Shown: positions 59,228 through 64,000, counted from the first letter of the stretch. The stretch is 64,000 nucleotides of DNA from an uncultured delta proteobacterium (GCA_963769935.1 CAVYNY010000011.1:224001-288000); one strand, 5' to 3'. The notes: generated by a model not told the origin, from the sequence alone. Numbers and translations: made by a program.

Positions 59228-59431
59228 ATGCCGGAAGGTACAGTAAAGTGGTTTAATAAGAAAAAAAATTACGGATTTATCGCATCCGAAGATCAGGAAG
59301 AAGTTTTCTTTCATGGCTCCCAAATTGTCGACCATGGTTTTTTTGGTTTGACCAACAATGATAAGGTTAGCTTTGAAATCAAAGAAACCCAAAACGGGCG
59401 CCAGGCGGTTAAGGTAAAGGTGACCAGTTAA
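59228..59431 (+). CDS. Cold-shock domain protein
   Basis: GTVKWFN, YGFI, VFFH; AAGGAG RBS. Confidence 0.9.
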   Translation: MPEGTVKWFNKKKNYGFIASEDQEEVFFHGSQIVDHGFFGLTNNDKVSFEIKETQNGRQAVKVKVTS

Positions 59432-60075
59432 TTTTTTTTCATCAACAGCTGTTTGATTTTTTTAACGCCGTCGCCGGCGTCTTGGGCGCAAGCGTCGGCG
59501 CCGATGCGGTCGGCCCAGCGTTTAGTGACCGGGGCGCCGCCCACAATCGTTTTATACTTTTCTTTCAGGCCTGATTTTTTCAGCTCTTCTTCAAGCTCCT
59601 TTTGAACCACCATGGTTGTGGTCAACAGCGTGCTGCTGCCGATGATGTCGGCCTTGAATTTTTCCGCTTCTTCGATAAAACGCGCAATGGGAACATCGCG
59701 GCCCAGGTCCAGCACATCGAAGCCGTTGGCCCGCAGCAGGGCTACAACAATCGTTTTGCCGATGTCATGCATGTCGCCCTCGACGGTTCCGATGACGATT
59801 CGGCCGGCGGCGGTTTCGTGCCCCAGCGGAATGGCCGCGTTAATGATGGCGGTTGCTTTTTCCATGGCCGCCGCCGATTTTACCAGGCCCGGGATAAACA
59901 GCTTGCCGGCCCCGAAAAGATCACCGACCCGGTTGATTCCGGGGATAAATCCGTTGGCCATTAAATCCAAAGGGTCGATGTTTGCATCCAACCCCCGCCT
60001 GGCAGCCTCGGCTGCCTTTTCAACATCGCCCTGTAAAATTGCTTCAATTGCCGCCGAATATATTTTTTCTGTCAT
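59428..60075 (-). CDS. mtbC: Methylamine methyltransferase corrinoid protein (MtbC-like)
   Basis: B12-binding GTVEGDMHDIGK (DxHxxG), DLGRDVP, VGGAPVT; directly downstream of mtbB. Confidence 0.88.
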   Translation of the reverse strand: MTEKIYSAAIEAILQGDVEKAAEAARRGLDANIDPLDLMANGFIPGINRVGDLFGAGKLFIPGLVKSAAAMEKATAIINAAIPLGHETAAGRIVIGTVEGDMHDIGKTIVVALLRANGFDVLDLGRDVPIARFIEEAEKFKADIIGSSTLLTTTMVVQKELEEELKKSGLKEKYKTIVGGAPVTKRWADRIGADACAQDAGDGVKKIKQLLMKKN

Positions 60076-60130
60076 ATGCGCATCCGCTTTGTCTGAAAAT
60101 TGTCTGAAAAGTAATTTTCTCCTGAACCGT

Positions 60131-61534
60131 TCAACCTATGTCCGATTTGAACAATTCAACCGAATTAATCCTCACATCCAGCAGCTCCGCAACCTTGAGC
60201 TTGGCCCGCATGCCTTTCGGACTGCCGGCCACAGAGGTGATGATGCCGATTCCCAGGTCCTCCCTGACCTGTCGCATGACTTCCTCGTTGGTCAGGTCCG
60301 AAATTTCAACTGCCAGTTTTTTTGCCGCATACTGCTTTGCTTCGGCCAATTTCATTTTTTTGATCAGCTGCAGCCAGGCCACCAGATCTCCGGAGGTCCG
60401 GATGCCGCCCATGCCGGAAGCAAAAATATGCGCCAGGTGCATCCCGAAAGGATCGCCGACGCCAATCTACAAACCGTCGGCTTTGCCGATCTGTACCAGC
60501 GATTTCGATGCCCGGGTGACGCTGTCGATCGGCGGTGCTTCCAGCATCGGCACCCCGCCGACGCCCATGCCGACGTTTACATGCACCGGTATATCGACCG
60601 CCGCCACGGCCGCTTTGACGAATGTCAGGCTGCGGGCGATGTTCCAGGCCGTGGACTGATTCGTGTTGGTGCCGACGGCCACCCCGAAGATGCTGGCACC
60701 GGCGGCTTCGGCCATGCGGGCCTGGTCGTGGGGGTACATTCCGGCCAGCTGCCGGCCGTTAAAGGTCATCTCGCCGTGCATCCCCAGAACAAATTCGCCC
60801 GCACCGCCCAGAATGATCGGCATGTCCGGCGCCGCTTTTCTCAAATCACCGACGGCTTGCAGCGCTGCTAAAAAATCGGCATCGCCCGCCGAACCGGCCG
60901 TATCGAAGTTGAGGCCCTCACAGCCGATGCGATCAAGTTTTTTGCCGACGAAAACCAGATCCTGGCGCAGCTGGGCGGCGGCGGCCTCCTGGACCTCCTG
61001 GGCTTCTTTGATTTTGCCCCCGGCCAGAAGATCGGCCGGATTTTGGTGGGGACCGTCCGGTTGAAAATATAATCCCATGTTGGGCTGGGCCCCGTACAAA
61101 AACGGAGCTGTGGTCATCATGGAAATCGTGTAGTACTCATTCATCTCGGAATTGACGATGGGTTTAACCGGTTTGAAGCTGTAATCGCTGTGGCCCATGG
61201 AGGTCGTATCCGCCGCACAGGCCCGCTCATAGGTCAGGATCGCCTGCATGCGGCTCATGGATACGCCGACACCGCCGCTGTCCTGCCCGGAATAAAAACT
61301 CATCGAGCAACCGTCATCCGTGACAATCACCTCCCGACCGGGTTCGACACTGACGGCCCGGGACGGCTCGGCCAGGATATCAAAGAGTGCTTCCATCTCG
61401 TCGGGGGTGAGTTCGGGAATTTCAGCACGCTGCGCCGCTTCCCGGCTGGCGGCCTGAATATCTTCCTTAACCTCTTCGGATGCCATCAAAACCCGCTCGC
61501 CGTCACCCATCCGGATTATAATTTTATCCTTCAT
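60131..61534 (-). CDS. mtbB: Dimethylamine:corrinoid methyltransferase, 467 aa with pyrrolysine at in-frame TAG (codon 356, 60467-60469)
   Basis: RMGDG N-terminus, DYSFKPVKP, YGAQPNMGLY, GMGVGGVPM; ADGL-[TAG]-IGVGDPFGM continues in frame to TGA at 60131; GGGAGA RBS. Confidence 0.93.
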
Positions 61535-61723
61535 TGGCAGATTCTCCCGTTTTTCCAATATTCCAACGTTCCACCACTCCAATAAGATTGCCTGGTAAAA
61601 CGCTTTCTAACAAAGGGGTATCTGAAAATCAATACCAACCTTGATTTGACGACAATTTAAACAATGCCGGGGTTGACATACCCGCTATGGAAAAGGTAAT
61701 TAGAGAGCACTTCAAGACTCAGC

Positions 61724-61797
61724 GGGGGGTGGATCGATAGGAGATCGCGTGGACTCTAAATTCACGTAGCTCGGTGCGACACCGTGACCTCCCGCCA
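61724..61797 (+). tRNA. pylT: tRNA-Pyl (anticodon CUA at 61756-61758)
   Basis: Acceptor GGGGGGT/ACCTCCC + G + CCA; D stem GATC/GATC; 6-bp anticodon stem CGTGGA/TTCACG with loop CTCTAAA; 3-nt variable loop; no TTC in the T loop. Confidence 0.93.
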
Positions 61798-62036
61798 CTG
61801 TTGGTTCTTGACAACACGTCCTCATATAGGGTGTTGAAGTTATGACATTTATGCAAAAACTTTTTCCACCACGAAAACACGAAATTTATCTTATCCTCTT
61901 TTCGTGTTTTCGTCCTTTCGTGCTTTCGTGATTAATTTGTCTTTATTAGTTCCGGCTAGTCCGGGGAGGTATTAAAAATGGATTTCATCCTTTTCATCAA
62001 ATAACCAATAACCGTTTGTTCAACCGGGGGATAATT

Positions 62037-63037: not shown

Positions 63038-63134
63038 TAATTAATCCGCCGCACCCGTGAAAAAATTATATCCTTCAGTTATCAAAGAACAATTTAAAAC
63101 TTTGATAGTGCTATTCTTCGGGGCGGATTAATTA
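63038..63134. mobile_element. 97-bp MITE-like element, copy 3, between pylSc and pylSn
   Basis: Perfect 13-bp TIR TAATTAATCCGCC/GGCGGATTAATTA. Confidence 0.65.
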
Positions 63135-63153
63135 GTATGGAGAGCTACTAGCT

Positions 63154-63501
63154 TTGGAGGAGAAGACGCCGACCAAACAGCCTGCTAAGCGCTATTACCG
63201 CAAGCGGGTGGAGCTTTTTCGCCTCATCGACAAAATTAAGCTCTGGCCTTCGCGCCAGGGCCTGCTGCACGGCATCAGGACAATTGAGATTGCAGGCGAT
63301 CAGGCGCGCGTGACGACCCACTGCAACAAAACGTTTATGATTACCAATTCCAGAAACAGCCGGGCTGCCCGCTGGCTCAGAAATAAATGGTTCAAAGGGG
63401 TATGCGGGACTTGCCGGGTCCCGGAATGGAAGTTGGCCAAGTATTCAGCCACTTATTTCAAACGCCGGTATGGTTCGGACTTGTTGAGAGAGAAGGAATA
63501 G
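63154..63501 (+). CDS. pylSn: Pyrrolysyl-tRNA synthetase, N-terminal tRNA-binding subunit
   Basis: KIKLWPSRQGLLHGI, THC, NSRNSRAARWLRNK, CxxCRVP zinc motif; ends in TAG. Confidence 0.92.
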   Translation: MEEKTPTKQPAKRYYRKRVELFRLIDKIKLWPSRQGLLHGIRTIEIAGDQARVTTHCNKTFMITNSRNSRAARWLRNKWFKGVCGTCRVPEWKLAKYSATYFKRRYGSDLLREKE

Positions 63502-63545
63502 AGGTTCAGAGTTCAGGGTTCACAGTTCAAAGGTTTTGGGGTGAC

Positions 63546-63803
63546 ACCTCATATGAAACTACATCTCACACAGAGCGCTCAGAGATCACAGAGGTCTGGG
63601 TTTACAGGCGCCTGCGGCGAAAGAAAAATGTTCTCTGCGGTCTCTGTGAGCTCTAACGGCTTGTCGGGTCGTAGCTCGAAGAGCGAAGCCTGAAAGTGGG
63701 CGTGATATTAAATCCAACTGTGTCCGATTTCCAAAAGTTTCTTTTATGATCAGACCGGCCGTTGTTTTGGCCGGCGGCGGCGCTGACACTTGAACCCTAA
63801 ACC
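63546..63803. repeat. Second copy of the composite dispersed repeat (see 51815-52197)
   Basis: Long near-identical blocks. Confidence 0.8.
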
Positions 63804-63832
63804 GTTAAACCTTTGCCACAAAGGAGATCTAG

Positions 63833-64000
63833 ATGCACCCGTTGATCGAATCCCTGATCAAGAGCGGTCCGGTCGTAACCGACGGATCCTGGGGAACCCA
63901 AATGCACAAGCGCGGCTTGAAACGCGGCCAGAGCCCGGATTCCTGGAATCTGAGCCATCCGGCACAGGTTGAAGATGTGGCCCGGCAATATGTCGATGCC
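63833..64000 (+). CDS. Homocysteine S-methyltransferase family protein, 3' partial
   Basis: AAGGAG RBS; MHPLIESLIKSGPVVTDGSWGTQMHKRGL...PDSWNLSHPAQVEDVARQYVDA matches the DG.xGT...WNL..P...Y..A N-terminus of MetH/BHMT-type Hcy-binding domains; absent from the ORF track. Confidence 0.78.
   Translation, partial: MHPLIESLIKSGPVVTDGSWGTQMHKRGLKRGQSPDSWNLSHPAQVEDVARQYVDA

Follow-up and report, generated by a model that had tools for sequence, protein, structure and literature searches.

The window analysed here, a stretch of 64,000 nucleotides (G000:C11:224001-288000) from the middle of a 643-kb contig of an uncultured delta proteobacterium (genome G000), carries a locus for decoding UAG as pyrrolysine (Pyl). 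It comprises mtbB, a dimethylamine:corrinoid methyltransferase gene with one in-frame TAG, a gene for the cognate corrinoid protein, the tRNA-Pyl gene pylT, and pylSc and pylSn, which encode the two subunits of a split pyrrolysyl-tRNA synthetase (PylRS). The genes for Pyl synthesis, pylB, pylC and pylD (pylBCD), were not found in the assembly (7.99 Mb in 41 contigs, 96.7% complete, 5.4% contamination), whose host appears to be a sulfate-reducer-like bacterium of a Desulfosarcina-like genus.

That the locus is genuine is close to certain. The lack of pylBCD in the assembly points to neighbouring microbes as the likely source of pyrrolysine, and we give about an even chance to G000 being a Pyl auxotroph that decodes the UAG of mtbB with pyrrolysine scavenged from other microbes. 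Slightly more tentatively, we propose that at least one species of the genus may keep tRNA-Pyl, PylRS, the pyrrolysine insertion sequence (PYLIS) and the UAG-containing enzyme under selection with Pyl synthesis discarded, which would make Pyl a shared community good.

The in-frame UAG of mtbB and its decoding genes

On the minus strand, two open reading frames (ORFs), 60467..61582 (371 amino acids, aa) and 60131..60442 (103 aa), lie in one frame and are split only by a TAG at 60467-60469. Read through from the ATG at 61534, preceded by a Shine-Dalgarno sequence (GGGAG), mtbB (60131-61534, minus strand, 467 codons) encodes a 467-aa protein with the amber as codon 356, the predicted pyrrolysine codon according to reading frame and homologue alignment. 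An initial annotation of this DNA, made from the sequence alone, had described precisely this split gene, and both the frame and the profile matches agree with it in every detail. The read-through protein aligned to PF09505 (Dimeth_Pyl) with an E-value of 5.9e-195 (648.6 bits, profile positions 4-462 of 463), collinearly across the UAG, and scored 544.7 bits against TIGR02368 (cut-off 369.1, profile positions 4-465 of 466). Its membership of the MtbB family is supported by a full-length model match above the curated cut-off, a UAG at the conserved column, a PYLIS_2 element and a corrinoid protein encoded alongside; the function predicted from these features is dimethylamine-specific methyl transfer, with Pyl in the protein. 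The G000 genome holds a single copy of mtbB, which is also its only Pyl-dependent gene: no MtmB was found in this genome, and its six MttB-family genes lack a TAG.

The TAG occupied one and the same alignment column in all 58 distinct mtbB homologues from the fetched loci, a set that includes copies less than 50% identical and others labelled Aminicenantes, Gemmatimonadota and Planctomycetaceae; such agreement is far beyond what chance would give, and a TAG lying off the conserved position, which the initial annotation had named as grounds for giving up its reading, was not observed among them. Nearly all full-length mtbB copies in 61 related genomes contained exactly one TAG, with two in a copy on G010:C1485, and the 19-residue protein context around the UAG was identical in 15/15 orthologues. 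The codon directly before the UAG (window positions 60470-60472, minus strand) was TTG in 13 of these 15, including G000, and CTG in G004 and G007. Most entries among the 120 best public MtbB homologues listed are 355-aa gene calls, that is, proteins cut at the TAG. The eight codons from the TAG to the next Met differed among 11 species by synonymous changes only, so this short segment has been translated.

The UAG is also the first codon of an RNA element (60370-60469, minus strand) matching Rfam RF02509, PYLIS_2 ('pyrrolysine insertion sequence mtbB'), over all 100 model positions (1-100; 68.8 bits, gathering score 36, E-value 1.3e-15). The lowest synonymous-site diversity of mtbB was seen at codons 375-395 (0.26-0.30 bits compared with a gene mean of 0.98), and the 10-mer GGAGATCTGG was present at +78 in 56/58 mtbB genes. 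In a second hairpin after the UAG, 84.9% of cells were paired, compared with at most 47.2% when the partners were slid, the sequences being related, so that shuffle counts do not equal probabilities; the same hairpin covaries at columns 24-51 and at two synonymous columns, 30-45. We considered this post-UAG hairpin as a new element and rejected the idea, as it is the PYLIS_2 of Rfam. Relative to RF02509, the G000 copy shows a single outer-stem mismatch (U-C, alignment columns 23-52) and is otherwise unremarkable.

The corrinoid (B12-binding) protein gene (59428-60075, minus strand; PF02310, PF02607) follows mtbB, and pylT, pylSc and pylSn lie divergently on the plus strand, an arrangement that had also been proposed from the sequence and is borne out by the TIGR02370, ARAGORN, TIGR02367 and TIGR03912 matches. 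The corrinoid protein is MtbC-like, scoring 224.7 bits against TIGR02370 (cut-off 215.3), and falls below the cut-off of the MtbC equivalog NF041607 (192.9 vs 350). The tRNA-Pyl gene (61724-61797) has a CUA anticodon, a 6-bp anticodon stem, a 3-nt variable loop, a small D loop and an encoded CCA end; intact, near-identical copies were recovered by ARAGORN in 22 of 24 related loci, that of G022 lying at the very end of its contig. PylSc, the catalytic subunit (62016-62879), scored 335.9 bits against TIGR02367 (cut-off 178.15) and aligned over residues 7-287 with the Desulfitobacterium hafniense-type structures 3DSQ and 2ZNI (E-value 1.3e-98). PylSn, the small tRNA-binding subunit (63154-63501), scored 132 bits against TIGR03912 (cut-off 51.15) and could be aligned to the PylRS N-terminal domain structure 5UD5. 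RamA-like corrinoid activases are encoded elsewhere in G000.

Several irregular reading frames were encountered in these genomes. The mtbB copy beside pylSc in G001 (G001:C12:79366-80749, L037) shifts frame at the TAG position (residues 6-354 vs 355-466), and G001 holds five further mtbB copies. One of the six MttB-family genes of G000 (G000:C20:190728-192143) has an in-frame TGA, which could be a selenocysteine codon, the mark of a pseudogene or a sequencing error. The rpoB gene of G007, a genome with pylBCD, has an in-frame TAG where G000 encodes Lys (G007:C74:13649-17701, L104; PFD-K-KITVG, residue 1252); this could be an artefact of sequencing, or else an essential gene in which UAG is decoded as pyrrolysine. 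Finally, a RamA-like (RACo) gene of G000 (G000:C16:133322-134103) and rpoB of G013 (G013:C10:22555-26607) are each split over three reading frames, and such frame-split genes suggest indel-prone sequencing, which matters for calling pseudogenes.

Missing pylB, pylC and pylD

Profiles for PylB, PylC and PylD (TIGR03910, TIGR03909 and TIGR03911) gave no match over the cut-off in G000, and the Methanosarcina control was detected each time. Whole-genome tblastn searches were run with PylB, PylC and PylD of two congeners, G001 and G012, one for each architectural type. For the methylornithine synthase PylB, G000 yielded no profile match and a best tblastn E-value of 0.047; for the ligase PylC, only generic ATP-grasp matches of at most 31.1 bits (cut-off 248.3) and a best tblastn E-value of 4.9e-5; and for the dehydrogenase PylD, a best score of 24.6 bits (cut-off 150.05) with all 93 first-look candidates scored.

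Comparison of operons shows that a 274-bp spacer between pylSc and pylSn (62880-63153) lies where classical bacterial operons hold pylB-pylC-pylD, and no remnant of the three genes was detected within it (best tblastn E-value 0.12). A second site for pylBCD, used in G001 and G007, lies between an ABC-ATPase gene and a gene for a 564-aa protein. Within a 380-kb contig of G000, the two converge with only 133 bp between them, and the site is likewise empty in G008, G013 and G015. Both known congener homes of pylBCD are thus present and empty in G000. The initial annotation had concluded that the organism demethylates dimethylamine using the 22nd amino acid: the gene anatomy and the protein families on which this rested stand, but a supply of Pyl does not follow from the assembly. 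Since pylBCD were not found, Pyl-dependent use of dimethylamine holds only with outside pyrrolysine or with unassembled genes.

Three arrangements occur in the genus: pylSc-B-C-D-Sn (G012, G020, G017, G016 and partly G021, G002 and G003); pylSc-C-D with pylB elsewhere (G006, G011, G019); and pylSc adjacent to pylSn (G000, G001, G004, G005, G007, G008, G009, G010, G013, G015, G018). Among all loci compared, the first order was seen in G012, G020, G017, G016, G024, G056 and G031. In one clade of the genus, the pylBCD genes, seen in G001 (L033 8084-11326) and G007 (L034 8003-11199), stand apart from pylSc-pylSn, at the ABC-ATPase/564-aa site, and their proteins share only 55-67% identity with their counterparts from the classical-order clade, which suggests relocation or re-acquisition of the biosynthetic genes.

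A tree of RpoB (22 rows, quick method; G016 gave no rpoB match, and for G014 and G019 the second fragment was excluded) placed G000 in a clade with G022, G015, G018 and G008 (SH-aLRT 99). Intact pylB, pylC or pylD was found in none of these five members (0/5), and the sister clade has the genes beside pylSc. No pylBCD was found in G013 either, a member of the other main clade. G008 (70 contigs) retains a decayed cassette elsewhere in its genome, closest to the genes of the sister clade: a PylB reduced by an internal deletion to residues 2-153 plus a short tail, a PylC split over two frames and a PylD of which only the leading 30 aa are left, with no pylSc or pylSn remnants beside it. A clean deletion boundary in G000 opposite this remnant was ruled out, as the G008 region is a mosaic without a single G000 counterpart. 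Beside the decayed cassette, a stretch of about 225 bp (L035 10397-10622) matches at least 10 G000 sites on different contigs at 68-74% identity and is, from these matches, either a dispersed repeat or a short conserved gene.

A survey of the order (301 genomes at least 90% complete) found PylSc over the cut-off in 49 and, with only eight first-look candidates scored per genome, PylD in 43, all 43 of which also had PylSc. Pyl decoding, described in the initial annotation as rare in bacteria, is thus not rare in this lineage, with PylSc in 20 of 22 congeners and a Pyl-MtbB already published in 2007 for an Olavius delta1 symbiont (PMC1976440). Six genomes had PylSc without PylD. In three of them, G217, G264 and G304 (290-310 contigs), pylSc is close to the edge of its contig (about 2.3 kb or less before the end, or 260 bp after the start); in the other three, G000, G008 and G013 (40-70 contigs), it lies deep in long contigs.

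We judge it quite likely that pylBCD are truly absent from the organism. The alternative, that they exist in unassembled or unbinned DNA such as a strain-variable island or a plasmid, which would make the locus a complete Pyl system of the ordinary kind found in the congeners, appears unlikely, although several points speak for it. The assembly is incomplete and in 41 contigs; the cassette moves within the genus, being found beside pylSc, at the ABC-ATPase/564-aa site or elsewhere; the G008 remnant lies in a mosaic, island-like region of a kind that readily drops out of metagenome bins; pylBCD are described in the O. algarvensis delta1 symbiont; and intact, constrained decoding genes are exactly what a complete system predicts. 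On the other side, two independent search methods (profiles and tblastn) were negative, the two known chromosomal sites, within contigs of 643 kb and 380 kb, are intact and hold no cassette, the five-species clade and G013 are all without intact copies, and G008 offers positive evidence of decay rather than mere absence. Moreover, the three genomes with PylSc, no PylD and 40-70 contigs all belong to one genus.

Continued selection and the supply of pyrrolysine

Pairwise ratios of non-synonymous to synonymous substitution rates (dN/dS, NG86) were restricted to pairs within one or the other of two sister clades, the one without pylBCD and the one with them. They were 0.071-0.131 and 0.057-0.102, respectively, for MtbB, 0.052-0.100 and 0.115-0.272 for PylSc, 0.066-0.096 and 0.079-0.131 for PylSn, and 0.056-0.197 and 0.076-0.254 for the part of mtbB after the TAG. 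As estimated from these substitutions, mtbB (its post-TAG part included), pylSc and pylSn are under strong purifying selection. A parsimony count on the terminal branch of G000 mtbB gave 48 synonymous and 17 non-synonymous changes (dN/dS of about 0.11), compared with 0.07-0.14 on the terminal branches of G022, G015, G018 and G013 and 0.11-0.15 in pylBCD-positive species. No lesions were seen in pylT, pylSc, pylSn or the pylS-linked mtbB of G000, G008, G013, G015 and G018; pylSc of G022 lies beyond the contig end.

These data bear on a second alternative, namely that pylBCD were lost very recently and what remains is a non-working relic, with translation stopping at UAG356 and decay not yet begun. 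The G008 remnant does show a recent loss within the clade: its pylC has a dN/dS of 0.15-0.19 against functional copies (functional pairs, 0.14-0.22), a value no higher than that of functional pairs, so inactivation was recent. With one Pyl-dependent gene in G000, the cost of losing the trait would be small, and TAG is a common stop codon. Against this, the decoding genes and mtbB are free of lesions in the five genomes named above, the post-TAG segment and PYLIS_2 are still conserved, and terminal-branch dN/dS of mtbB in the species without pylBCD (about 0.07-0.14) is no higher than in pylBCD-positive ones, so that the loss would have to be very late on each branch. We therefore hold the relic explanation to be rather improbable; and if pylBCD are truly absent, the system is fairly likely to be functional rather than a relic, because a relic requires very late loss on every one of several branches.

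Least probable by far is that the synthetase has shifted to another internal lysine derivative, or that an unrelated pathway makes pyrrolysine, so that UAG356 is decoded without pylBCD or uptake. The decoding genes are indeed constrained without pylBCD, and wild-type PylRS accepts several N6-acyl-lysine analogues; however, the PylSc pocket motifs (CLRPMLAPHLY, EFTMLNLVEMGL, W[VM]GIGFGLERL and, from the fourth motif, its VYGE core) do not differ between congeners that have pylBCD and those that do not, and the pocket motifs of 24 PylSc sequences vary by no more than a few conservative substitutions; on these grounds a changed PylRS specificity was rejected. The strong match of PylSc to the structurally characterised, Pyl-specific 3DSQ also speaks against it, the neighbourhood of the locus showed no candidate gene cluster, and the chemistry of MtbB is thought to need the pyrroline ring, a requirement established for MtmB and MttB (PMC9842639).

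If G000 scavenges pyrrolysine, the amino acid would be imported from outside the cell, PylSc and PylSn would charge tRNA-Pyl with it, and the ribosome would read UAG356 as Pyl. MtbB would then demethylate dimethylamine and methylate the corrinoid protein in its Co(I) state, a zinc-thiol methyltransferase of family PF02574 would hand the methyl group on to homocysteine or a related acceptor, and the RamA-like activases encoded elsewhere would keep the corrinoid reduced. As for the feasibility of uptake, E. coli with only pylS and pylT reportedly reads UAG when given added pyrrolysine (work of Blight et al. from 2004).

A number of considerations weigh against this scavenging scenario. About 3% of the genome is unseen in a 96.7% complete draft, and a plasmid or an accessory island might go unassembled or unbinned; the assemblies of G000 and its relatives probably come from metagenome binning, in which variable islands can be lost. 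The drafts within the clade are fragmentary (G015 87% complete, G018 95% in 1620 contigs, G022 85%), which makes the absences in these three weaker evidence. G018 is itself a congener metagenome-assembled genome named 'Olavius sp. associated proteobacterium Delta 1' in which no pylBCD was seen, and the published delta1 symbiont is reported to have these genes. As judged from the G008 pylC sequence, pylBCD were probably still present in the ancestor of the clade and lost later in several independent events. A single old loss in that ancestor was considered and rejected, since the pylC remnant of G008 evolved like a functional gene until recently, and with recent, likely independent losses, long retention of the decoding genes after one old loss cannot be claimed. 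Pairwise dN/dS also averages over time before the loss. TAG ends 1038 of the 4594 long ORFs of G000 (22.6%), and a stop codon this common means that the genome shows no adaptation to amber read-through. We know of no pyrrolysine transporter or salvage enzyme, nor did we identify one here, and free pyrrolysine is not known to have been measured in nature.

Neighbouring genes and known pyrrolysine systems

Downstream of pylSn, a homocysteine S-methyltransferase-family gene (296 aa, plus strand) starts at 63833 and continues past the window end; the full gene (L008 4833-5723) matches PF02574 with an E-value of 2.8e-65, and its product is, from this family match, likely a methyl-corrinoid:acceptor methyltransferase. 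The gene adjoins pylSn in G008, G012, G015, G017, G018 and G020, and adjoins pylD in G011, where no pylSn match was found. It is followed on the same strand by a gene for an M20 amidohydrolase (L008 5866-7053, G000:C11:288866-290053; TIGR01891, 354.5 bits), which was present in the four loci examined from the clade without pylBCD (G000, G008, G015, G018) and in none of the other pyl loci within their limited flanks; this may be plain synteny, or the product may be a candidate for releasing an amino acid from an acylated or peptide-bound form. Scanning the locus for promoters and terminators returned 3 promoter-like sites (3.9 expected). Further away, a small ORF at 55666-55899 (minus strand) has the C-terminal sequence VPEPATLMLLGTGLIGLAGLCRKKFKK, which we take to resemble a PEP-CTERM sorting signal.

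The closest published counterpart is the delta1 symbiont of Olavius algarvensis, for which Zhang and Gladyshev (2007, PMC1976440) describe Pyl-MtbB, pylT and split pylSn/pylSc, together with pylB, pylC, pylD, six MtbB and two Pyl-MttB. Both organisms are deltaproteobacteria with a Pyl-MtbB, pylT and a split PylRS, and the record title of G018 suggests that they belong to one genus; G000 differs from that account in having one MtbB, no Pyl-MttB and no pylBCD that could be found. With the D. hafniense-type cassette, pylT-pylSc-pylB-pylC-pylD-pylSn, the locus shares the split PylRS, pylT and the order pylSc ... pylSn, but a 274-bp spacer takes the place of the three biosynthetic genes, and the Pyl enzyme of that cassette is an MttB homologue (PMC1976440) whereas that of G000 is an MtbB.

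Compared with the MtbB/MtbC/MtbA system of Methanosarcina, the G000 protein is collinear across the UAG in both TIGR02368 and PF09505. M. barkeri MtbB1 is presumably also a 467-aa protein with Pyl356, as in G000; the PDB contained no MtbB structure. In contrast to the Methanosarcina pathway, the G000 system is bacterial, its synthetase is split, its second methyltransferase belongs to PF02574 and is not of the MtbA type, and its corrinoid protein scores below the MtbC equivalog cut-off.

To our knowledge, accounts of natural pyrrolysine use treat synthesis (pylBCD) and decoding (pylTS) as one package, and full-text literature searches, covering main articles, revealed no organism in nature that reads Pyl codons but does not synthesise the amino acid. 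Should scavenging prove true, a genetically encoded amino acid can be cross-fed among microbes, pyrrolysine must be available in the environment and have a way into the cell, predictions of methylamine use from gene content in sediments and symbioses need community context, and G000 would hold a natural PylRS/tRNA pair tuned to an external substrate. Should pylBCD merely be missing from the draft, G000 would be an ordinary member of a system known in the genus since 2007. E. coli carrying pylS and pylT and fed synthetic pyrrolysine shows the mode proposed for G000, decoding without synthesis, but is engineered, whereas in G000 this would be the natural state of a free-living or symbiotic lineage. 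The Pyl-MtbB and split PylRS locus is in itself a further member of the system known since 2007 (PMC1976440); what sets G000 apart is the retention of decoding genes in an assembly where no synthesis genes were found.

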